Positions 51,852 through 63,897 are shown, numbered from the stretch's first letter. The stretch is 64,000 bases of DNA from an uncultured Nitrososphaeraceae archaeon (GCA_963729045.1 CAVSMN010000010.1:106559-170558), one strand, 5' to 3'. Numbers and translations: made by a program. Notes: generated by a model from the letters alone, not told the origin.

Positions 51852-51914
51852 TGCGAGATGCAGGATTTGAACCCGCACTTCGCTCGTACCTTAACCAGGC
51901 TGGGCCAACCTCGC
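51852..51914 (-). pseudogene. tRNA pseudogene (Leu-like) lacking anticodon and variable arms
   Basis: GCGAGGT TG GCCC AGCCTGGTTAA GGT acgagcgaagt GCGGG TTCAAAT CCTGC ATCTCGC A: acceptor stem, D-arm and T-arm present; 63 nt. Confidence 0.8.
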
Positions 51915-52246: not shown

Positions 52247-52737
52247 AATTGTTCTATGCAGGTTTGATTATAAGAGATATAACAACAGAGGAAAAATTAT
52301 CAAGAACCAAAGTAAATACGATCAAATTAAGAATTAAAGAAAACTCTAAACCAATGTAAATTAGATTTTTGAAATACACTTGTATGGTTAGATTCTATTG
52401 ATACCAGGATTAGGCTCGCTTGTCTTTCCGCTCGAGGATTGAATGAAATAATTAAATAGTGAGACTTTGTTCATCCTTGAATTATATCCCTGCGGACCGA
52501 GCAAAGTTAGACTACGGCTAATAGACAGGTCGTGTATTCATTTTTTGAGATACTTGCAATGCAATAAGTTATCGAATATGTTTGACTTACAAAAACAATT
52601 ATTGTATAGATGCTGTACGATTTCAAAGTCTTTCAAATTCTCCACCATCCTAAAGTAATTGTTTCTCTTTGGGAATAATATACAATTTATTATTATATAA
52701 GATTCGTATATAAGAAAATTATCAAATAGATAATACA

Positions 52738-53112
52738 TTGATTTACCCCATCAATTGTTACCTTTCAATGACTAATAACAGTATTAGGAAAAAAATACTT
52801 TATCAAATACCTGTATTATTGATAATACTTGCGATATCCGTTCCAATGGCCACTGCTTCAGGTTTATCCAATGTCTTTTTTTCTTCTCCTAGTATGTCAG
52901 TAAATCAACTTGTATATGCAGAAGATGAGGTTTCCAGTGGTGGAGATCATTTAACTTCATCAACTACTACTGACCCAGTCTTAGGACACAGTCTAATAGG
53001 CTTAACAGTCACTAAAGAAAATGCTAATCCTTCTTTAGTTGAAGAGACTGAAGAACAAGATCTTGATTGTAGATACGTTTCAGAAAAGAATTTCAAAGTA
53101 TCAGAGGAATGA
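52738..53112 (+). CDS. host-type secreted hypothetical protein abutting the GC-rich island
   Basis: Signal-like segment, AT-rich; stop 4 bp before the NRPS ATG. Confidence 0.55.
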   Translation: MIYPINCYLSMTNNSIRKKILYQIPVLLIILAISVPMATASGLSNVFFSSPSMSVNQLVYAEDEVSSGGDHLTSSTTTDPVLGHSLIGLTVTKENANPSLVEETEEQDLDCRYVSEKNFKVSEE

Positions 53113-53116
53113 TGAC

Positions 53117-56100
53117 ATGCCGCAATTTGTTCCAAACCAATTGAATCCCGGCCACGACGGAGGAGAGAAGGTCGCCGAGTTGCGCCCGCTCGCACAAGGG
53201 CAGCCTGATCTGAACGGAGTTTGCGGCCTCAGCCGTCCTCAAAGTATAGTACGCGAGCATGCAAGCAATTCAATTCGCTGGGCTCCTGACGAGCGGCTCA
53301 ATCATCTTCTCGAGGAAGCCTGCGTCCGCTTCGCGACGAACGATGCCGTCATTGGAAGCGGCATCGTTCTGAGTTATCGCGATTTCGACCGCCGTGCCAA
53401 TCAGCTCGCGCGTCATCTGCTCGCACACGGAATCAAGTCCGGCGACCGCGTCGCAATGATGTTTGACAGATCACCAGAAGCATACGTGGCGATGCTTGCG
53501 GTAATGAAAGTCAATGCGGCCTATGTGCCACTCGACGCTGCCTTTCCGATTGAACGCGTCCGCTTCATCCTCGGGGATGCCAACGTTTCCGCCATTCTGT
53601 CAATGTCGAGTTTCGCGGTGCGCCTCTCCGGCGCCCAGGTCAACAAGATATTTCTCGATTCGGAGAGGCAGGCGATCGGTGCACAGGCAGCCAATTCGTT
53701 GACTGGCGTTTCGCCGCCGACCGAGCCCCTCTCCTACATCATTTACACATCGGGCACAACCGGTAATCCGAAGGGTGTTTGTATCGGACACGCAAGTATT
53801 TGCAATTTCGTGCGCGTCGCCGCTGAGCTTTATGGCTATTGCGCCCGGCGATCGCGTCTATCAGGGCATGTCGATAGCGTTCGATTTCTCCGTCGAGGAG
53901 ATCTGGGTGCCGCTGATGTGCGGCGCGACGCTCGTGCCGGGCCCGACTGGCAGGACCCTGATGGGCGACGAGCTCGGAGACTTTCTGCGCAAACGCCGTG
54001 TGACCGTAATGGCTTGTGTTCCGACGCTGCTCTCTACTATAGAGCAGGACGTGCCGGACTTGCGGATCCTGTTGGTCGGCGGCGAGGCTTGCCCGCAAAG
54101 TCTCGTGGCCCAATGGTATCGCCCCGGCCGCCGCATTCTCAACACCTACGGCCCCACCGAGGCGACCGTCACAGCGGCAATGACCGAGCTGCGGCCGGAC
54201 AAGCCGGTCACGATCGGCGTACCGCTCCCGACCTATTCGATCGTCATCCTCGATCCTAACGAGGACAATACCGTTCCGATAGGCGAGATAGGCGAGATCG
54301 GTATCGCGGGCATCGGATTGGCGCTTGGTTACATAAATCGCGATGACCTGACTAAGAAGAAGTTCATCCGCGATTTCCTGCATATCAAGAACAATCCATC
54401 CGGCAAAATCTATCGCACCGGTGATGTTGGTCGAATCATCGAGAACGGCGAGATAGACTACCGCGGTCGGATCGACACGCAGGTCAAGATCCGCGGCTAT
54501 CGCATCGAGCTCAAAGAAATCGAAGCGGTGCTACTCGACCTGCCACAGGTCGCTCAAGCCGCCGTGACGACATTTGAGATTGAGGAGAGCGTCGTCGAAA
54601 TCGTCGCCTATTATGCTCTCAAGCGGGGTGTCGAGCTGCCGCATAGGGAGATCTGGCAGGCACTGCGCAGCAAGCTTCCCGTCTACATGGTGCCGGCCTT
54701 CTTCGAGCAGGTCGACACCATACCGATGACGTTGAGCAACAAGGTCGACTACAAGAGGCTGCCCAAGCCGCAGCCGAAGCGTTTTTCCGCTACGCAGGTG
54801 TATGTCCCGCCCAAAACCGACCGCGAGCGAATGGTGCACGACGCGCTCGCTGGCGTCCTTTGCATCGAGCATGTCTCGACCGAGCACCACTTCTTCAATG
54901 ACCTTGGTGCCAACTCACTGTTGATGGCACGCGTCTGTGCGGCAATCCGCAGGAAACCGGGCATGTCGAACTTGTCGATGCGCGATATCTATATGCATCC
55001 GACGATCGCCAGGCTGGCGCATCATCTCGATTCATCGATCGACGGATCTGTCGCAACGAAGCCGGAACCCTTCCATGTTCCGTCGACCTTGTCGTACGTC
55101 ACGTGCGGGGCCCTGCAGATTGGATTCACCGCGGCCTATCTGTTGTTCGGACTCTTTATCTTCGTGGCCGGCATTCAATGGGCGACCGCCATCGACAGCG
55201 TGGTGGAGATCTACGTGCGCAGCGTCGCGTTCGGCTCAGGATTGTTTGTTGCGCTGATCGCGCTTCCCGTCGCGGCGAAATGGGTGCTGATAGGTCGCTT
55301 CAAGGCGCAATCGATTCCGATCTGGAGCTTTGCGTATTTCCGCTTCTGGGTCGTCAAGACTCTGATGCGCACATCGCCTGTGGCTGCCTTCATTAGCACA
55401 CCACTCTACAACGCCTATCTGCGCCTGATGGGCGCCAGAATCGGCCGCAACGTGATGCTGAGGTGCCAGTTCACGCCGGTCTGTACCGACCTTGTGACGA
55501 TCGGTGACAACACCATCGTCAACAGTGAAACGAGCCTGCTCGGCTATCGTGCGCAGTCTAACTTCATTCATATGGGCCCGGTTACGATCGGCAGCAATGC
55601 GTTCGTCGGCGAAGGGAGCGTGCTCGACATCGATACTACGATGGGCAACAACACTCAGCTCGGTCATGCCTCGTCACTGCAGAGCGGCCAGCGGGTGCCG
55701 GACGACAAGCGCTACCATGGCTCTCCGGCGGTCGAGACGTCCTCGGACTATCGCCAGATCGAGTCCAAGAATGGTGCTGATCTCCGAGGCGCCATCTATG
55801 TGTCGCTTATCCTCGCGACAATGATCATGATTGCCGGGCCTGCCATGATGATCCTCATCTACCACGTCTGGGATCTATTTTGCCCGACTCCTCTAACCAC
55901 TCTGCATTGTACAACGTTCTTCTCCATGTCGACTCCCTTGCTTCTCGCCATTTCGGCGGCGCTGTTCTTCGGCGCGCTTGGCATCGGTCTGGCTGGTGTG
56001 TATGTCATCCCGCGCCTCTGTATGAGGGGGCTGCGGCCCGATGTAACCTACCAGAATTTCGGCTTCCACTACCTGCTGCAGAGCATCATCCGAGGCATCA

Positions 56101-57291
56101 GCAACTCGGGCTTCTTCAGCTCGCTTTTCGGCGACTCATCAGCCGTCGTATGGTACATGCGCTACGTCGGCTGGAACTTGAACACGGTCCATCAAACCGG
56201 CTCGAACATGGGAAGTGACCAGAAGCACGACAACCCGTTTCTCTGCAATATCGGCAGCGGCACGATGATTTCGGACGGGCTCAAGATGATGAACATGCAG
56301 ATGTCGCCGACGTCGTTCCGGCTTGCCGAGTCGAAGATAGGCGACAACAACTTTCTGGGCAACGGTATCTCCTACCCACCGAATGGTCGCACCGGATCCA
56401 ACGTCCTGTTCGGGACCAAGACATTGGTCCCGATCGACGGCCCGGTGCGCGAGAATGTCGGGCTACTTGGTTCGCCGGCCTTCGAGATTCCGCGCAACGT
56501 CTGCCGTGATCGCGACATATGTGCCTCGTTCGACGAGCAGACACGTCTCGCCCGTCTCCGCCGCAAGAACATGTACAATTTCGTCACAGCCTTGATCTTC
56601 ATCACAAGCCAGTGGGTGGTAGTGGCTGCCGCGTTAATGCTCACGCGAGTCGCAATTGCGAACATCGATCATTTCGGCACCTTCGTGTTCTTCGGAGCCA
56701 GCGTGGCGGATATTGGATTGAACATGGCCTTCCTCATCGTGCTCGAGCGCGCGATTATGAGATTCAAGCGACTCAAGCCGCGGCTCGCCTCGATCTACGA
56801 TCCGTATTTCTGGTGGCATGAAAGGCACTGGAAGTTAAATCGCTTTCCCAATCTTGACCATGTTCGCCGGCACCCCGTTTCGCGGAATACTGCTTCGCGC
56901 CATGGGCATGAAGGTCGGTGCCAAGCTGTTCGATTGCAGTTTGGGTATCCCGGAACGCTCGCTGATCGAGGTTGGCGACTACACCAATCTGAACGAGGGT
57001 TGTGTGTTGCAGGCACATTCGCTAGAGGAAGGCGTTTTCAAGTCGGACTATATCCGGCTCGGCAACAGGTGCTCGGTCGGCCCGGGGGCCTTAGTTCACT
57101 ACGGCGTCAGCACCGGAGACGACGTCGTGCTCGACGCCGATTCGTTCCTGATGAAGGGCGAGATCCTGGATTCTCATACGGAGTGGTGCGGAAATCCGGC
57201 CAAGTTGGTGCGCCGTCATGTAGCTCGGGCAGAGGTTTGCGTCCAGGACGTCGCCGACACCACCGCCCGAAATGACTTCGCCCCACAATGA
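53117..57291 (+). CDS. Pls/PosA-family single-module membrane NRPS (A-T-TM/terminal domains), two frameshifts (~53839, ~56845)
   Basis: YTSGTTGNPKG, FDFSV, NTYGPTE, YRTGD, GRIDTQVKIRGYRIE, T-domain LGANSL, TM helices and hexapeptide-repeat blocks (LRLMGARIG, LRAMGMKVG). Confidence 0.9.
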
Positions 57292-57742
57292 GCGACAAGA
57301 TCAGATGCTAAAGAAGATGACCACCGACAATTGGGAAGCGGTGGTCGAGATTGAGCTCCGTGCCGGCCAGGAAGACTTGATGGCGAGCAATTCTATTCGG
57401 TTGCCGAGGCGCAGTTCGATCCCGACACGCGCCCGCGCTGCTGTTTATGCCGAGAAGCACGTCGTCGGCTTTCTGATGTATGACGTACAGAAAAAGAAGG
57501 GCAAGGCGCAGAAAGCCTCGATCTATAACTTCATGATCGATTGGAAGCACCAAGACAAAGGCTATGGTCGCGCCGCGCTGAGCAAGGCTCTGCAGGAGAT
57601 CCGAGCGATCCCGGGGGTGAACAGGATATCGATTCGCTATATGCCAGAAAATCCGATTGCGAAGCCGTTCTATATCATCTTCAGATTCGTGGAGGTGGGT
57701 CGGGACCGCGATGGCGACGTGATCGCGGTTTTGAAACTATAA
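57288..57742 (+). CDS. GNAT N-acetyltransferase (BltD/polyamine acetyltransferase-like) with indels
   Basis: DNWEAVVEIEL, VGFLMY, FMIDWKHQDKGYGRAAL, YMPENPIAKPFY; ATGA overlap with NRPS stop. Confidence 0.8.
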
Positions 57743-58377
57743 TGTCAGACGGTACAGTCGATTACTCGCTGAAGCGAGCAATCGAATCCCTCTCCTTGCC
57801 TGGTCTGCTGATCGGCCATCGTGTGATTTCGCAAGGCGATGAGCTCGCGCTGCTCCACGAAGAGATGGCGTCGTTATCCTTCCCTACAATCGAGAGGCGC
57901 CGTGCCAGCGGCGCCGCACGACGTGTGGCGCGCGAACTGATGAACTCGATGGGCTTTTCCGGCCTTCCGATCCTCAGGAGCACATTTGGCGCCCCGATCT
58001 GGCCCGCCGGGGTCGTAGGCTCGATGGCACATGATGATCGAATTGCTGTTGCCGCTGTCGGGCTGCGGCGTGACGTGGAAGCGGTCGGCATCGATATAGA
58101 AACTGTCGCGCCGTTGCCGCCGGACATGCTCGAGCTGATCGCCACACCGCGGGAGCGGCATGCGATTGCTGATAACCCATTGGGGGTAAAAATTCTTTTC
58201 GTCATCAAGGAGGCAGTCTACAAGGCGGTCTATCCGCTCGATCATGAGTTTCTGGATTTTCACGATATCGAGGTCGACTTTGCCGGCCGGCTCGCGACGA
58301 CCCAAGCCGGACGCACGCTCGCGCTCCACTGGTGCGTTTTCTCTCACGTGCTGGTCGTGGCGACGATTCATATCTGA
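57742..58377 (+). CDS. 4'-phosphopantetheinyl transferase (EntD/Sfp-type)
   Basis: GAPIWPAGVVGSMAH, VGIDIE, FVIKEAVYKA; ATG overlaps GNAT TAA. Confidence 0.92.
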   Translation: MSDGTVDYSLKRAIESLSLPGLLIGHRVISQGDELALLHEEMASLSFPTIERRRASGAARRVARELMNSMGFSGLPILRSTFGAPIWPAGVVGSMAHDDRIAVAAVGLRRDVEAVGIDIETVAPLPPDMLELIATPRERHAIADNPLGVKILFVIKEAVYKAVYPLDHEFLDFHDIEVDFAGRLATTQAGRTLALHWCVFSHVLVVATIHI

Positions 58378-58599
58378 CCACTATCACAAATTAAGGAATA
58401 GTCACAATTCTGGCATTCCCATCCAGGTTTTGGATTAAATTCCCTTTTCTAATGGATTCAACAATTGAAATCATTTATCCTTTATTTTTATTATATCTTA
58501 ATCTGTAATTTCAATCATTATTTTCTTTTTTTCACGGAGAAACTGGCATCTACTTTTTGTGGTTTTTTCCATACGAATTTTCTTCCACTGATGAATAAA

Positions 58600-59275
58600 T
58601 TACAAATTGCATGTCTTCATTTAGCTTATTTTTACTTAGCGGTTCTTGATGTCTTGTAATCGATAACTATAAAATCATCTTTATCTTTTATTATTTCTTT
58701 ATACTCTATTTTGTTAACAACTTTTTTTATTTTATCAAAATCCTGTTCTAAGATCGCATCTAAAATCTCTTTAATGTTGATGTCTGTTGATTTTGTTTTA
58801 GCAAAATAAAGTATTTTCTCTATTGCACTTTGATATTTACCTCATTATTGATATCAGCGACTATCCTCTTTGTTAATTCGTCATGGGCATCCAATTTATC
58901 AACCCATGAATTTTCTATTTCAAAATCTTCATACACTATGCACGTCTTTTATTTGTAGTTCTTATCAGCTAAAAATCTAAATAGTTTTGAATTTGTTAAA
59001 TTATTTCTTTATTTTTTGACACAAGGTAACATTTTATCCGTTGCCCTTGTTATTGCAACTTACATTAACTTTCTTTCCTCCTGAATGTGTTGATCTTTCT
59101 CAGAAAGATTAGGTTGAATTCCTTTTAACAGTGTTAGGGTGCTAGGGACAATAAATTTATCTTTTATATATAAAGAAGGAAACTTTCTTTCAATTATATC
59201 TATTATAAACACCACAGGAAATTCCATTCCCTTTGAAGCGTGTACTGTCATAACTTTTATTGCATCCTCATCGCT
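58600..59275 (-). pseudogene. UvrD/AddA-like helicase-nuclease remnant
   Basis: VMTVHASKGMEFPVVFI, EERKLM*VAITRA, downstream FIVIDYKTS. Confidence 0.8.
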
Positions 59276-59289
59276 ATTTGTTTCCTGTG

Positions 59290-59478
59290 AGTAAGTTGTT
59301 GTTGTTTGAGTAGCAACGGGCATCCCTCTAGTATATCATTAGATTGATCCTCGAGAGTAAGACATGGTATGGGACAACCAATATCATCGATAAAACTAGC
59401 CCCTTCAAATGTTTCATTTGAACAAGGATTGTTTTGCTCGGATTGGGTATCAGACGATTGATCATTATTATCAGTCAC
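59290..59478 (-). repeat. ~190-bp diverged direct duplicate of 46020-46210
   Basis: TDNNDQSSDTQSEQNN.CSNET shared at DNA and protein level. Confidence 0.9.
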
Positions 59479-59497
59479 CTCCTATGATCTTGTCGAT

Positions 59498-59731
59498 TTG
59501 AAAACCAAATTTACCGAATGGTATTATTTAGAAGGAGGTGGAATTTTTTTGACTGAAATAGACCAAAAAATGTATACTAATTTTGTTAGGGAAATTGAAT
59601 GTCTGATAACAAGGTCGGGTTTTTTTATCGAAGAAAAAGAATTGGAAAAATTAAGAGAACTTGTGAGTGCATTCCGTTCAAACCTTCTTCAAAGTATAGG
59701 TACAAGAGAAGAATCACAATACCACAATTAA
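59498..59731 (+). CDS. hypothetical protein fragment
   Basis: 77-aa TTG-start ORF. Confidence 0.35.
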   Translation: MKTKFTEWYYLEGGGIFLTEIDQKMYTNFVREIECLITRSGFFIEEKELEKLRELVSAFRSNLLQSIGTREESQYHN

Positions 59732-59807
59732 TTGCAAAAAAATGCCCATCGATATCTTTATCCTCAATTTAAGAGATTCTTATGAAGTGACATATTATAG
59801 TAAAACC

Positions 59808-59874
59808 TCGCGGGTTCAAATCCCGTACTTCGCACCTCTTCTTTTCTCTAAAGGATTTGAACCCGCTTGTATAC
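59808..59874 (+). repeat. tRNA-3'-derived ~65-bp TIR element, opposite orientation
   Basis: gcgggttcaaatcccgtacttcgcacc...ggatttgaacccgcttgtatac. Confidence 0.95.
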
Positions 59875-59929
59875 ACTGTGCATCTATCGATCAATTAGGT
59901 AATTAGATTCTTTATTATATCATGAATAA

Positions 59930-60418
59930 TTGTTTTTATACCAAATATTTGATAAAACCTTAATGAATTATGGAATATTTACCCTTAGATTTATAGTTGT
60001 TATTCTTGGTGGATTATTGTCCCTATTAGGAACTAGTATTATTGCGGATATGATGCCAAATGAAGCTTTTGCTCCCATTGCCTTCCGATTTGCCCCTCCT
60101 GTTATAACAGGCGAAAATGTCTATGTTACATGGTGGACCAACAATACAGCCAATAACAATGATGAAGTCTTATTTAGAGCATCTACGGATGGTGGTGTTA
60201 CTTTTGGAGATAAGATTAATTTAAGCAACTCTAATAATACTAATTCTACAAGAGCAGAAATAGCCTCAGATGCTGATAGTGTGGTGGTTACCTGGTGGGA
60301 ATCAAATCAAACCTCTGAAACCCCAGTCATGAGAGTTAGTGATGATAATGGAGAAACATTTGGACCTACTTTGATACTTGCTGTTAACGGAACTATTGGT
60401 GTTGCACCGGCAAATTAA
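59930..60418 (+). CDS. short secreted BNR/Asp-box (sialidase-like) repeat protein
   Basis: STDGGVTFG and SDDNGETFG Asp-boxes, signal peptide. Confidence 0.8.
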   Translation: MFLYQIFDKTLMNYGIFTLRFIVVILGGLLSLLGTSIIADMMPNEAFAPIAFRFAPPVITGENVYVTWWTNNTANNNDEVLFRASTDGGVTFGDKINLSNSNNTNSTRAEIASDADSVVVTWWESNQTSETPVMRVSDDNGETFGPTLILAVNGTIGVAPAN

Positions 60419-61447
60419 GATAATTCATTCTACATCAAAAACCTCTTTCTTTTTTTAACAAAAGAATATTGATTCCTGCCAATCATAGGTAATAAATAGA
60501 TAATATTTGTGTTAATACATTGGGACTTGAATTTTGGTCAAGATTTTAATTATGAACAAAATATTACCGACATAGTATTTATAGTTATTATCATATTTAT
60601 TACGGTGCTTGTTGTCTAAGTAGTAACAACTCAAATATTGTTGACTAATTATTTATTAATTTTGTTTATTATTAAATAACATTAATTTGATGGCATTAAC
60701 CTCTGGCGATACATCTGACTTCAAATATCTACTATTATGAAGGCAAATCAGTCTAATTATTTTTTCCATAACTATATCTAATCGAATCCATTGCCTTTTG
60801 CTATTTTATCAGTGGAATATCAACATGATCGGTAGATATTAGAATAAAATTTCAAATCTATTTTCTTTAATTCTATCCATTTATCTCAAGACATTTAGAT
60901 AGAAAATGGTCCTATTTTATATTTCATATATCATTATCTACCTGTAACTAGTAACAAGTAACTATACTCCTTTTTATCCTTTTGCATTTCAAATCCACCT
61001 GATATGGATAAAAAATATTGTTTATGTTATCTAAACTAACTCTTTATTTTGGTACAACAATAATTAGAGTCTCTTTTATAGTAAGGCTTCAAGTTCCACT
61101 CTCTTATTTTTTACCATATTATTGTTATTATATCATTTTTAAAATAACATTAGAATTACTTTCTAAATACTACTGAATTTTCTCTTATTAGCAATTATCT
61201 AATTATTAAACTGTAAAAGAATTTATGATCAGAAAGTTGATATGATTAAATTCTTGTTCTAAGACATTTACTAAAAAAAATAATGAAATTTCAGTCTGTT
61301 AATGAACACAAACTTGCTTGGTTCATAGAGTGCAGGAGAATCATCGGCAACATGAGGATCTCGGTGGACAATACTACGCTTACAGGTTTTCTCGAATGGA
61401 TTTATTTTAGTTCCCACTCGATGGTAGGCTGTAATAGGGGCTTTTCC

Positions 61448-61669
61448 GAATCGTTACCACGGCAACTATGTGAGAGGAGATGATTGAGCCTTTCGCCAGG
61501 TGACCAGCGTAGTACATTATTCCCATGGTTAAGTACTAAACTCTGAGGGGTGTCGAGGCGGCAAATATCTTTCATATTAAATTACTGTGGTGTATGCTTG
61601 AGCAACTAGGAGACATTCTCCTTTTCCGTTGTGTCAAGCATCCTATGCATGTGAACCAATTTACAACAT
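61448..61669 (-). pseudogene. collapsed second copy of the NRPS island (NRPS N-terminus fused to PPTase C-terminus)
   Basis: Hand translation ...ENVS*LLKHTPQ*FNMKDICRLDTPQSLVLNHGNNVLRWSPGERLNHLL|SHIVAVVTI versus island ...EKVAELRPLAQGQPDLNGVCGLSRPQSIVREHASNSIRWAPDERLNHLL and SHVLVVATI. Confidence 0.85.
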
Positions 61670-61779
61670 ATTTTAATTCTTCAAATAAATATACCATAGT
61701 CATAAACTCAAACCTCAATAGTTCCTCCAATCGTATTTTCATTAAAGGATATTATTTAAATACAGTGTAGAAAAGTTTC

Positions 61780-62170
61780 ACATTGGGAATAATTCTAAAT
61801 AAATCTCTAAAATACTCCTAGGCGTCTTTTTTAATCCTTCTACTTTGGTTATGTATGATTACGCTTGGATTACATACAATAAATAAAATTGTAATCCGTA
61901 TGCGCCAAGAATATTTCTATCATCTCTAATATTCCTATTGCAACTTATGGTTAGCATCTATCTAGGTTATCTATTGAAATTATTGAAATTATCAGTTTTT
62001 TCTTTGTTTTCTTCTTACCATTTTTACAATAGCAGATTACAAATTTCAACAAACTGAAAAGAAAGTTTCGTTTTAGGTAACGTTAATGATTCTTTCTTTT
62101 CGGCTTTGAAACTTTCATTCATCTTATCTAGAATACTATTTCCATAAGCTTATTTTTTCGTAATCCTGTT
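61780..62170 (-). pseudogene. KAP-family P-loop NTPase remnant
   Basis: KLIISIISIDNLDRC*P*VAIGILEMIEIFL (Walker B DxLDRCxP signature) with stops. Confidence 0.65.
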
Positions 62171-62336
62171 TTAAATTACTTAAAATTTATTTTTATTTGT
62201 AACACAATTGACATACTCAAATAATAATAATATATTCTAATAAAATAGGTAACAATAACAATATACTCAGAAGGCGGAGTTGGCCTTAGAAGAAGTACCT
62301 GGATTACAAGTAACACTGGATTTTTATCGTGAGCGA

Positions 62337-62390
62337 AGGGATCGCGGGTTCAAATCCCGCACTTTCCACTTTTATCGCGGGATTTGATCA
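62337..62390 (+). repeat. tRNA-3'-derived repeat, hairpin form, opposite orientation
   Basis: agggatcgcgggttcaaatcccgcactttccacttttatcgcgggatttgatca. Confidence 0.93.
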
Positions 62391-63897
62391 TATGAATAAT
62401 AACCATAAGAATATGATGTTCTACTTTTATCAATTATCTCAACTCAAAAAACATTAATTCTCTATAATTAGGATCACATCATCATTTAAATATATTTGCG
62501 ACTATTAATAAGGGAAAATGGATAAAGACGTTCAAAAGATTTTCCGACCGTCTTTGAGAAACAAATTTTTGGTAGAAATTGTAGGTACTTTTATTTTAGT
62601 ATATGCAATTGCTTCTGCTGCAACCGTCTATTCTGATAGTGGACAATTAGGAGTAATTGGAATAGGTTTGGTTCATGCTCTAGTCTTAACAGCTATTGTA
62701 TATGCCATAGGATATCGTTCTGGTGCGCAGGTCAATCCTGCAGTTACAATAGGTCTCTTGGTGGCCAAGAAAATTGGTAGAAAGGAAGCAGTTGTGTACA
62801 TTATTGCTCAGATTATTGGTGCCGTGCTTGCAGCTGCAGTTGTCTATTCAATTTTTGGCTCTGAAATGTCAGCTAGTGTAACATTGCCTTCCGACGGCAA
62901 CATTGTAAGAGCCCTTATCTTAGAAACCGTAATGACATTTACATTGGTATATGTTGTATTGGCCACAACTACCTCTAAGAACTTTAAGATAGTTCCATTG
63001 GCTGGAATAGCCATAGGTTTTACTCTCGGATTCAATGTTATATTCGGAGGCTCAATTACTGGAGGGTCATTAAATCCAGCTCGCTCCTTTGGCCCTGCCT
63101 TAATAACTTGGGATTTTGCTTATCAGTGGATTTATTGGGTAGCACCAATTGCTGGTGGACTAATAGCAGCAGGAGTGGTACAAATTGCTTCATACTGAAG
63201 AGGAAGAGGAAGAGGAAAAACTTCCACCAAAATAATGTTTGTACAAGAACTTGGATTCAGATATGAATGAGGTATTATACACCATACCTGTTTGACGGTC
63301 TCCACAGGTAACAGCCTACAATTAGGATAATGGTAATATGTATACAACAAGCACAAATTCAAACTCTGTCTTTGTAATTGGGTCAATAGTGCCGATTGCA
63401 GAAGACGGACTTGACCAAACTATAGACTCTGGTGTAACCGTGCATTTAGAAGGCGATGGTGGATAACCCCGGGAATTAAACACTGACTTAATAGTGGACT
63501 CGATAATCAGACTTGGAGTCACTCTGAGTAACTCAACAGCAGTAAATTCAATCTTCGCAGCACCCCGAACCATATTCCAACATACATTCGCATTTGAACT
63601 GGTCGTGACAAACAAGCAAGATTTGGTAAGTAAACCCTATAGCGTCACTATAACCGTGGGTTCTAATTTTGAAGGAATAATTGATTCAGGTAACAAATAT
63701 TTTATATCTATGTTCAAGAAAACTCTGGTAATAATGTAGGTGTACAATCTGGTAGTGAAAGTCATGGACGCTTACTCCCCAATCTTCCAAGGACAATCTA
63801 AAGAGCAGGATAGTCAAGTAATATCTTACTTTCAAATCTAAAATTGAACCTACTCATCTAGAGTGGTTTCAAAATGCATCGCTCTAAATTTAAGACA
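62347..63897 (+). repeat. ~1.55-kb module, copy B, bracketed by tRNA-derived repeats
   Basis: Inverted duplicate of 36139-37689. Confidence 0.95.
62518..63198 (+). CDS. aquaporin (MIP family), second copy with a +1 frameshift near the C-terminus
   Basis: Protein identical to 36803-37519 up to GGLIAAGV; ggagtggtac versus ggagtgtac. Confidence 0.93.
   Translation: MDKDVQKIFRPSLRNKFLVEIVGTFILVYAIASAATVYSDSGQLGVIGIGLVHALVLTAIVYAIGYRSGAQVNPAVTIGLLVAKKIGRKEAVVYIIAQIIGAVLAAAVVYSIFGSEMSASVTLPSDGNIVRALILETVMTFTLVYVVLATTTSKNFKIVPLAGIAIGFTLGFNVIFGGSITGGSLNPARSFGPALITWDFAYQWIYWVAPIAGGLIAAGVVQIASY

Follow-up and report, generated by a model that had tools for sequence, protein, structure and literature searches.

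A GC-rich cassette for a Pls/PosA-family nonribosomal peptide synthetase in an uncultured Nitrososphaeraceae archaeon

An uncultured ammonia-oxidizing soil archaeon of the Nitrososphaeraceae carries a GC-rich island with genes for a single-module nonribosomal peptide synthetase (NRPS) of the Pls/PosA family, a GNAT acetyltransferase and a 4'-phosphopantetheinyl transferase (PPTase). Comparison with homologs indicates that this cassette is of bacterial origin and is an older, shared acquisition, not a fresh one, because related archaea carry the same cassette. We consider it probable that it came from Hyphomicrobiales, entered archaea once, arrived a second time in this genome and would direct the synthesis of a cationic polymer, and that the two frameshifts in its NRPS are assembly errors. 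The window analyzed here is a stretch of 64,000 nucleotides (GCA_963729045.1 CAVSMN010000010.1:106559-170558), and its features are listed in Table 1. A preliminary description of the block, NRPS family, GNAT and PPTase stands; its single-ORF NRPS and its ATGA coupling do not.

Table 1. Coordinates of features in the window
Feature	Position	Strand	Evidence
5' part of host gene cut by island	52738..53103	+	Relatives without island read on past 53103
GC-rich island, unit common to other archaeal copies	53104..58372	+	GC profile, homology limits, GC3
Pls/PosA-family single-module NRPS (A-T-TM/three tandem domains)	53117..57291	+	Pfam, NCBIfam, tblastn; three frames in assembly
First +1 frameshift (TATT; one base shorter in other runs)	53837..53839	+	Contig comparison
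Membrane-embedded terminal domain: three TM-segment pairs and three hexapeptide-repeat-like soluble domains	55101..57201	+	TIGR02353, hydropathy, weak Hexapep matches
Second +1 frameshift, extra C	56841..56841	+	Contig comparison, frame check
GNAT acetyltransferase gene, scrambled at about 57359-57442 in assembly	57272..57742	+	PF00583, bacterial homolog, indels versus X1/X2
Sfp/EntD-type 4'-phosphopantetheinyl transferase	57742..58377	+	PF17837 and PF01648; last ~10 codons unlike other archaeal copies
Relic, NRPS 5' end of older AT-ameliorated copy	61474..61633	-	84.5% to G014; GC 0.44
Ancestral upstream flank "X" of island	61634..61817	-	Common to G010, G014, G011 and L033

The island and its genes

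The sharp GC-rich block was confirmed by a GC scan (500-nt windows from 53000 to 58499, 0.52 to 0.62; flanks, 0.27 to 0.35). The host genome has 33% GC, compared with 55-62% for 53104-58372, and the island is the only long block above 48% GC in its 2.85 Mb, barring a block at the start of C21 and others that we take, from their size and pairing, to be rRNA operons. Homology to other archaeal copies (limits set against L025, L033, L022, L029, L031 and L043) starts at 53096-53104 and ends at about 58370-58372, so the island indeed holds the NRPS, GNAT and Sfp/EntD-type PPTase genes and hardly anything beyond these three ORFs. Its composition is foreign, its distribution patchy and its phylogeny nested within that of the donor group, all of which mark it as horizontally acquired. 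ARAGORN found no tRNAs in the window, Rfam matched one 63-nt tRNA-like piece, and an unsystematic look noticed no integrase or terminal repeats.

The NRPS contains AMP-binding, AMP-binding_C, PP-binding and weak Hexapep domains (Pfam). The TIGR02353 terminal-domain model matches at 486.5 bits over its positions 1-572 (cut-off, 423.1), and its positions from about 578 to 695 are matched by the last NRPS piece in the next frame (143.8 bits); whole-frame copies of genomes G014, G010 and G048 score 655-663 bits. Stitched tblastn matches against the intact 1,359-aa G014 protein cover residues 7-1359. The transmembrane (TM) count is that of Kyte-Doolittle hydropathy alone, which gives six hydrophobic segments in three pairs separating three soluble stretches (paired peaks at about 634-689, 864-928 and 1124-1182 in the G014 protein, and alike in the frame-B part of the window copy). 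The terminal domain has internal paralogous tblastn matches; in the PDB it is matched weakly by hexapeptide acetyltransferases only, and no solved structure of a Pls/PosA terminal domain was found there. The family call is upheld by features shared with Pls, namely a single A domain and a single T domain, neither a condensation (C) nor a thioesterase (TE) domain being detected by Pfam, a TIGR02353 score above cut-off and three tandem acetyltransferase-like domains set among six C-terminal TM segments.

The PPTase scores 60.4 bits for 4PPT_N and 53.7 bits for ACPS, above the Pfam cut-offs, and is matched by the PptT, Npt and EntD models below theirs. It is the only PF01648 match in the genome; the PPTase matches in the genus (4 of 34 genomes) all lie inside the island, and four archaeal control genomes have no PF01648 match. 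Its proposed role as activator of the T domain is strengthened by this exclusivity. The GNAT matches PF00583 (Acetyltransf_1; 36.8 bits; cut-off, 20.7) and is 50% identical over 144 aa to the GNAT of bacterial locus L024; compared with bacterial homologs it has some 27 scrambled residues, and contigs of the sequencing runs X1 and X2 carry indels that would undo this. The TAATG overlap at 57740 is as described (GNAT stop, 57740-57742; PPTase ATG, 57742-57744). As the window reads, the ATG of the supposed ATGA coupling (57288) does not share the frame of the GNAT ORF (start, 57272), and it comes into frame only with two single-base omissions of run X1 (57304 and 57307). Tailoring or self-protection had been suggested for the GNAT; a needed role of this kind in archaea is doubtful, because in most archaeal copies the gene is decayed or survives as no more than a C-terminal stub, whereas NRPS and PPTase remain open. 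The cassette may thus illustrate how a needed helper (PPTase) is kept and an unneeded one (GNAT) decays.

Frameshifts in the synthetase gene

The NRPS had been read as one ORF, two +1 shifts having gone unnoticed; in the window it is spread over three frames (53117 to ~53838, ~53838 to 56841 and 56842 to 57291). Both shifts are most likely assembly indel errors, because they are absent from near-identical contigs of other sequencing runs (X1, X2 and X8; 1-2% different, other strains) and because this assembly likewise splits 16 of the 91 orthologs compared (at least 250 aa, from a closed genome of the genus) over at least two frames, so that two shifts in 4.2 kb are close to background. One base fewer is found at 53838 in X1 (12.1 of 12.1 depth), X2 (37.4 of about 48-54) and X8 (5.0 of 5.0), and the base at 56841 is missing from all covering contigs in the three runs. 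X8 is an RNA-library run with contigs over 52947-57261, and this coverage is itself no sign of transcription.

The main competitor to assembly error, which we regard as unlikely though worth weighing, is that this strain holds a true pseudogene whose frameshifts are real, and that the island is disappearing here as it is in G010 and G011. Decay does occur in the genus: the G010 NRPS has one frameshift and a changed adenylation code, DFDGIGTVTK (presumably in a short-read assembly, judging from the contig name), the G011 NRPS is heavily decayed (6 and 14 stops in two matches), and of 34 genomes searched within the genus, 29 yielded no NRPS. Neither insertion lies inside a homopolymer run, and the three frames and the scrambled GNAT stretch are also what a dying cassette would present. 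Against this, contigs of all three covering runs, albeit from other strains, lack the two shifts, ordinary genes of the assembly are split at a similar rate, the catalytic motifs and the code lysine are all kept in the window NRPS, and 19 of the 25 listed NRPS differences between the window and soil contigs are synonymous. With about one in six ordinary genes split by the assembly, pseudogene calls in it need a read check.

Origin and movement of the cassette

The order NRPS-GNAT-PPTase also occurs in bacterial loci L024, L034, L041, L049 and L052 (GC, 62-68% throughout), and the genes next to it at L024 and L034 have no relation to the cassette, being housekeeping genes and genes for transport or regulators. 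All 15 archaeal rows of a 44-row tree form one clade (SH-aLRT, 100), which a 23-row site-heterogeneous tree supports at 100/100. Its sister is a Xanthobacteraceae-type pair (L024 and L030) inside Hyphomicrobiales, and its stem length is 0.2-0.23. Shared gene order in Hyphomicrobiales and the nesting of the archaeal clade there bear out the proposed origin in a high-GC bacterium.

Within this genome, the full copy cuts a host gene whose product in relatives is an acidic, secreted protein of 486 aa that bears two DxDxDGxGCE motifs. Island-free relatives (G013, G002, G004 and G020) continue beyond 53103, where the window turns to island, and the full-length ORF is present in G002 (L006:1188-2648). 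The relic is 84.5% identical to G014 and 62% to the full copy in the window. Its X flank is 84.9% identical to G014 (blastn; relic plus X flank, 84.5-85%); the full copy is 65% identical to G014 over the same 5' stretch and has a different left flank. From these comparisons, we read the 190-nt AT-rich relic at the ancestral site (61474-61817) as the remnant of an older copy and the full copy as a less ameliorated second arrival, because it is sited away from that relic and cuts a host gene; the source was probably another archaeon. The full copy may instead be an old paralog, as it falls inside the genus clade in the protein tree (99/98), which counts against naming a source for the second arrival.

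Transfer between genera was also considered. NRPS identity is 72% between genera and 76% within the genus; three host proteins (two of them full-length) are 59-61% identical between G012 and the other-genus genome G169, and 68-84% within the genus. These values are suggestive but are confounded by fast AT-driven change of the G014 copy, and between-genera transfer is not put forward as a firm claim.

The first proposal, that this genome recently received the cassette straight from a high-GC bacterium, is very improbable, even though the island edges are sharp in GC, the window GNAT is still nearly whole and GC3 (0.757 for the frame-B NRPS part) is little below that of bacterial copies (0.83-0.86). 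The window copy lies inside the 15-member archaeal clade with its stem of 0.2-0.23, its nearest sequence is archaeal (L025; 88% nucleotide identity; dS, 0.225) versus a dS of 0.93 to the nearest bacterial copy, and the NRPS is present in 5 of the 34 genomes of the genus. Its limits equal those of islands in other archaea; at least 10 further assemblies carry such an island between AT-rich archaeal flanks, and these limits recur in at least four different genomic contexts. We give least credence to an assembly chimera or bacterial contamination in an archaeal contig. A GC jump at gene limits would speak for it, as would a right junction with no bridging contig among the matches listed and no match when metagenome contigs were scanned twice for exact patterns over 58360-58393 (not counted against that junction). 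Against it, contigs of four of four runs from four studies (one of which may be the source sample) bridge the left junction (53103/53104) with 0-1 mismatches, so that the chimera warned of earlier is not borne out there, the same-limit islands recur in the other archaeal assemblies, and a gene relic with its ancestral flank lies on the same contig.

Under the preferred reading of one old entry and a later second arrival, the cassette would have arisen in Hyphomicrobiales (Alphaproteobacteria) and entered ammonia-oxidizing archaea of the Nitrososphaeraceae once, certain lineages having since kept it under purifying selection and others having lost it or retained it in broken form. Here the original copy would have been deleted down to the relic, and the second copy, presumably from an archaeal source, would have landed 8 kb off. 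Among archaeal copies dN/dS is 0.10-0.41 (bacterial pair, 0.27), in line with purifying selection, as are the mostly synonymous NRPS differences from soil contigs; the maximum, 0.41 for the window versus L025, counts against the preferred reading. The locus offers a clean natural amelioration series, in which GC3 falls from 0.80 (L025) through 0.63-0.69 (L022, L026, L027 and L029) to 0.476 (G014) in hosts with about 30-48% flanking GC; host genes have a GC3 of 0.27-0.32.

Predicted product and known systems

The adenylation code is DFEALGTVTK, with code positions placed via conserved motifs and what we take to be the GrsA-PheA numbering. Its D-F-E start suggests that the substrate is a short diamino acid, either 2,3-diaminopropionate (Dap) or 2,4-diaminobutyrate (Dab). 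This call is weakened by the lack of precursor genes beside the cassette in archaea or bacteria and of any genome match above cut-offs: matches to diaminobutyrate transaminase (TIGR00709) and SbnA (TIGR03945) are all sub-cut-off paralogs, a result that is weak either way as both models also match all control genomes.

By analogy with the family, the PPTase would add a phosphopantetheine arm to the T-domain serine in a host that has no other PPTase, the A domain would adenylate one diamino acid and load it onto the T domain, and the three membrane-anchored tandem domains would link units via the side-chain amine. The predicted product, which would be released at the membrane, is a cationic homopolymer with isopeptide links. 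Ammonia-oxidizing archaea are viewed as lean chemolithotrophs with almost no secondary metabolism. We advance only tentatively, and as a less than even prospect, that soil members use a Hyphomicrobiales NRPS and its own PPTase to build a cationic homopolymer from a short diamino acid through isopeptide bonds, on a 5.3-kb cassette that moves as a unit between archaeal lineages and of which a fresh copy replaced a decayed one here. If true, Nitrososphaerota would gain their first carrier-protein-dependent natural product, and its synthesis would work only because the cassette brought a PPTase into a lineage without any. Were the polycation synthetase functional, some soil lineages would have a trait bearing on antimicrobial action, adhesion or surface charge, and cultures could be searched for the polymer.

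Code position 1 is Asp and position 3 is Glu, as in Pls; according to the consulted portions of two papers, these two residues are conserved in the Pls/PosA family as diamino-acid binding mode 1, and position 2 tracks chain length, Ala going with Lys, Met with Orn and Phe with PDAP/PDAB (PMC10522769, PMC12042044). Lysine is therefore an unlikely substrate, as position 2 is Phe in the window and not Ala as in Pls. The window NRPS further differs from Pls in its archaeal host, in the PPTase and GNAT that travel with it, and in being 46-50% identical even to the actinomycete homologs compared. PosA, the delta-poly-L-ornithine synthetase of Acinetobacter baumannii, shares the family model and the D1/E3 binding mode, but in the available sections of its description has Met at position 2 (from a residue list) and no neighbours cotranscribed with posA (PMC10522769), unlike the three-gene cassette. 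Actinomycete poly(L-diaminopropionate) and poly(diaminobutyrate) synthetases have Phe at position 2, going by the same sections (PMC10522769); those systems are supplied by dedicated Dap/Dab enzymes, whereas none lies beside the cassette or scores above cut-offs here.

A literature search found no paper describing the cassette in Nitrososphaerales or Nitrosocosmicus. Archaeal members of the Pls/PosA family are already listed in print: the portion consulted of Patel et al. (2023) gives archaeal/rhizobial CHPA homologs with unassigned substrate and the code DLEDIGTV(T/V/I)K. The window NRPS resembles these in its archaeal host and its code tail G-T-V-T-K, and differs at positions 2, 4 and 5, where it has F, A and L.

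Gene content, reading frames and limits of the island

The window (G000:C10:106559-170558) comes from a Nitrososphaeraceae genome of 2.85 Mb (22 contigs; GC content, 32-35%), and GC in 500-nt windows is 0.52-0.62 across 53000-58499 and 0.27-0.35 in the flanks. The GC-rich block (the island) encodes a nonribosomal peptide synthetase (NRPS), a GNAT and a Sfp/EntD-type PPTase. The NRPS matched NCBIfam TIGR02353 ("Pls/PosA family non-ribosomal peptide synthetase") with 486.5 bits over model positions 1-572 (cut-off, 423.1) and with 143.8 bits over positions 580-695. Its hydrophobic segments fall into three pairs with three soluble stretches between them, the layout published for Pls (PMC8117764, in excerpt), and the GNAT stop overlaps the PPTase start (TAATG at 57740). 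GC profile, domain matches, hydropathy and this overlap bear out the three-gene, GC-rich block of the preliminary description. In sequencing run X1, an 11-base insertion (local duplication) lies at 57728, directly before the overlap.

Features of the window
Feature	Coordinates	Strand	Match or remark
tRNA-like sequence, 63 nt	51852-51914	-	Rfam RF00005, 35.6 bits; no ARAGORN call
NRPS, first frame	53117 to ~53838	+	AMP-binding, AMP-binding_C and PP-binding (whole NRPS)
NRPS, second frame	~53838 to 56841	+	
NRPS, third frame	56842-57291	+	
GNAT		+	PF00583
PPTase		+	PF17837 and PF01648
Gene-poor, decayed stretch	58400-62500		
UvrD_C fragment	59060-59323	-	within the decayed stretch
Short repeat	~59808-59875		
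ORF	59930-60418		multi-copy family of the genus
Relic of NRPS 5' end, ~160-190 nt	61474-61633	inverted with flank 'X'	
Flank 'X'	61634-61817	inverted	joined to the relic
Short repeat	~62332-62373		

The NRPS had been described as an open reading frame; the family and its domains hold, but the gene runs through three frames, which had been missed. About 27 residues of the GNAT are unmatched to bacterial proteins, and the stretches on both sides do match. Logan contigs from four runs (X1, X2, X6 and X8; four studies) were aligned to window 52600-58900, with X1, X2 and X8 covering the two NRPS shift sites and X6 without coverage there. One base fewer than in the window was found at 53837-53839 in X1 (12.1/12.1 depth), X2 (37.4/~48-54) and X8 (5.0/5.0), and at 56841 in all X1, X2 and X8 contigs. 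X1 and X2 also omit 2 bases at 57359 and 1 base at 57442, which would undo the scrambled GNAT stretch. Given their 1-2% divergence from the window, these contigs come from close strains and not from the G000 strain itself; 19 of the 25 listed single-base differences in the NRPS are synonymous.

For comparison with ordinary genes, 145 ORFs of at least 250 amino acids from 400 kb of the closed genome G012 (same genus) were searched against G000 with tblastn. Among 91 clear orthologs, 75 had one full-length match and 16 (one of them possibly a paralog pair) were split over at least two frames, including C12:154254-155976, C11:37805-41046 and C12:163373-164528. In ordinary G000 genes, shifts thus occur about once in 6 kb of coding sequence, so two shifts in a 4.2-kb NRPS are background; indel errors seem to be numerous in this assembly. 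We consider the NRPS frameshifts probable assembly indel errors; that they reflect true decay of the gene is unlikely. A class-III aminotransferase of G000 also lies in two adjacent frames.

At the left junction (53103/53104), four island-free relatives continue into the remainder of a conserved gene (encoding a 486-amino-acid secreted acidic protein in G002, one such genome), and the island, or an accompanying deletion, therefore cut a host gene. The concern that the contig might be falsely joined is answered on this side, where contigs of all four runs (one of which may be the source sample) bridge the junction with 0-1 mismatches. On the right, homology to other copies stops at ~58370-58372, within the last PPTase codons (other archaeal copies are ~10 codons longer); no contig spanning this end was present among the matches listed, and exact-pattern scans of contigs gave no match. 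An assembly chimera is very unlikely, because many other assemblies have this island, identically bounded, in AT-rich flanks and because an NRPS relic lies further along the same contig.

The tRNA-like sequence, 1.2 kb upstream of the island, appears to be without an anticodon arm and has no recognisable genes around it. The short repeats downstream recur at many places across genomes of the genus.

Bacterial origin of the cassette

NRPS relatives were sought with one genome per species (528 encoding stretches, best 76 loci kept). Among these best 76 of 528, the closest were Nitrososphaeraceae MAGs (75-84% amino acid identity), followed by Alphaproteobacteria/Hyphomicrobiales (Xanthobacteraceae, Pseudorhodoplanes; 54-83%), and then by actinomycetes (42-50%, apart from three outliers at 56-65%). 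The order NRPS-GNAT-PPTase was also found in five bacterial loci (L024, L034, L041, L049 and L052), and bacterial cassettes were 44-51% (GNAT) and 47-57% (PPTase) identical to archaeal queries (the window's or those of G014, a genome of the genus). They stand at native composition (62-68% GC), and the genes neighbouring the cassette in L024 and L034 are unrelated.

All 15 archaeal rows formed one clade in a 44-row tree (SH-aLRT, 100), and in a 23-row tree (LG+C20+F+G4) this clade had support of 100/100 and a stem of 0.23; its sister was L024+L030, inside Hyphomicrobiales. One of the 15, L021 (JAWKYA010000049.1, 4 kb), is recorded as an Alphaproteobacteria bacterium; its flank has 29% GC and its NRPS belongs to the archaeal clade, so that L021 is most likely an archaeal contig, broken at the GC jump and misbinned. 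dN/dS was 0.10-0.41 among archaeal copies and 0.27 for one bacterial pair. The bacterial cassettes of the same order, the tree and dN/dS together argue that archaea took the cassette from a donor of the Hyphomicrobiales type, probably in a single transfer, and that selection has acted on it there ever since. Similarity search and phylogeny thus uphold the bacterial source proposed earlier and narrow it to this type.

MAG proteins of the archaeal clade already carry the NCBI name [quoted passage not shown] (P0058), and Patel et al. 2023 (PMC10522769, in excerpt) mention archaeal homologs with another code. Our search of full-text literature found no paper that describes this cassette of ammonia oxidizers, the donor it came from or its history there. 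The enzyme is of a known kind, and the evolutionary record of the cassette is instructive.

Proposed product and substrate

By the published family mechanism (excerpts of PMC10522769 and PMC8117764) and the general biochemistry of Pls, the PPTase would prime the T domain, the A domain would activate one diamino acid, and the membrane-embedded tandem domains would add units via the side-chain amine; by analogy, a cationic isopeptide homopolymer would result. The adenylation code (ten specificity residues) of the window, DFEALGTVTK, recurs in 10 other rows (7 archaeal, 3 bacterial), and eight complete bacterial rows, including sister L024, have DFEALGSVTK; two truncated rows, L030 among them, have the first nine letters of the latter, and actinomycete outgroup rows have DFECLSVVTK. 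Code positions were located by conserved motifs, using GrsA numbering. [quoted passage not shown] With Asp1, Glu3 and Phe at position 2, the window A domain might tentatively be assigned a short diamino acid; the call is held low because precursor genes were found neither beside the cassette nor over cut-off in the G000 genome.

Amelioration, probable replacement and decay of copies

NRPS GC3 declines stepwise, being 0.83-0.86 in bacteria (L024, L034 and L041), 0.80 in locus L025, 0.757 in the window copy (the part between the two shifts), 0.63-0.69 in L022, L026, L027 and L029, and 0.476 in G014; host genes in the window have 0.27-0.32. An ancestral upstream flank ('X') is common to G010, G014, G011 and L033. 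The window relic joined to this flank shares 84.5% identity and AT-shifted states with G014 and only 62% identity with the full copy 8 kb away, and by three host proteins G000 stands on a par with G014, while G010 and G011 lie apart. On this likeness and placement, the common ancestor of G000 and G014 carried an already ameliorated copy at flank 'X', which was later lost from G000.

The present window copy has had another history: it is less ameliorated, has another flank and is nearest to L025 (88% nucleotide identity; dS, 0.225). We lean towards a second arrival from another archaeon; the alternative, an old paralog kept elsewhere, must account for the lack of matching amelioration within one genome. 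In the protein tree the genus clade (99/98) has the window copy at its base, and the tree therefore names no source for a second arrival.

The NRPS was found in 5 of 34 genomes of the genus (G000, G010, G011, G014 and G048) and, in the genome copies searched, not in its three one-contig genomes (G012, G015 and G041). Across 301 sampled genomes of the order, 5 of the 74 that belong to the family have close homologs, G000 counted. Three more genomes in the sample, from other families (G066, G117 and G206), have Pls-like genes that are full-length or nearly so and 34-39% identical to the window NRPS; these other ammonia-oxidizing archaea probably acquired the enzyme family separately. The NRPS is open in G014 (1359 amino acids), G169 (another genus), L022, L025, L026, L027 and L029; a single split interrupts it in G010, L033 and G048 (the last two may be one copy), and in G011 it is full of stops; the code has drifted in G010 and lost its lysine in G011. 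Only in the window and L025 can the GNAT be recognised over its whole length; in other archaeal copies it is truncated or shifted, has shrunk to a C-terminal stub of 35 residues, or is missing. The PPTase is retained at 72-86% identity where the contig extends to it, except beside L026 and L027, both second copies. G000 has no other PF01648 protein, and the four PF01648 matches in the genus (34 genomes) are all within the island.

Two Nitrososphaeraceae MAGs have two NRPS copies each (L018+L027 and L022+L026). The second copies, L026 and L027, are without a PPTase, have the altered code DFEALGGVGK, and may be a duplicate with changed substrate relying on the other copy's PPTase.
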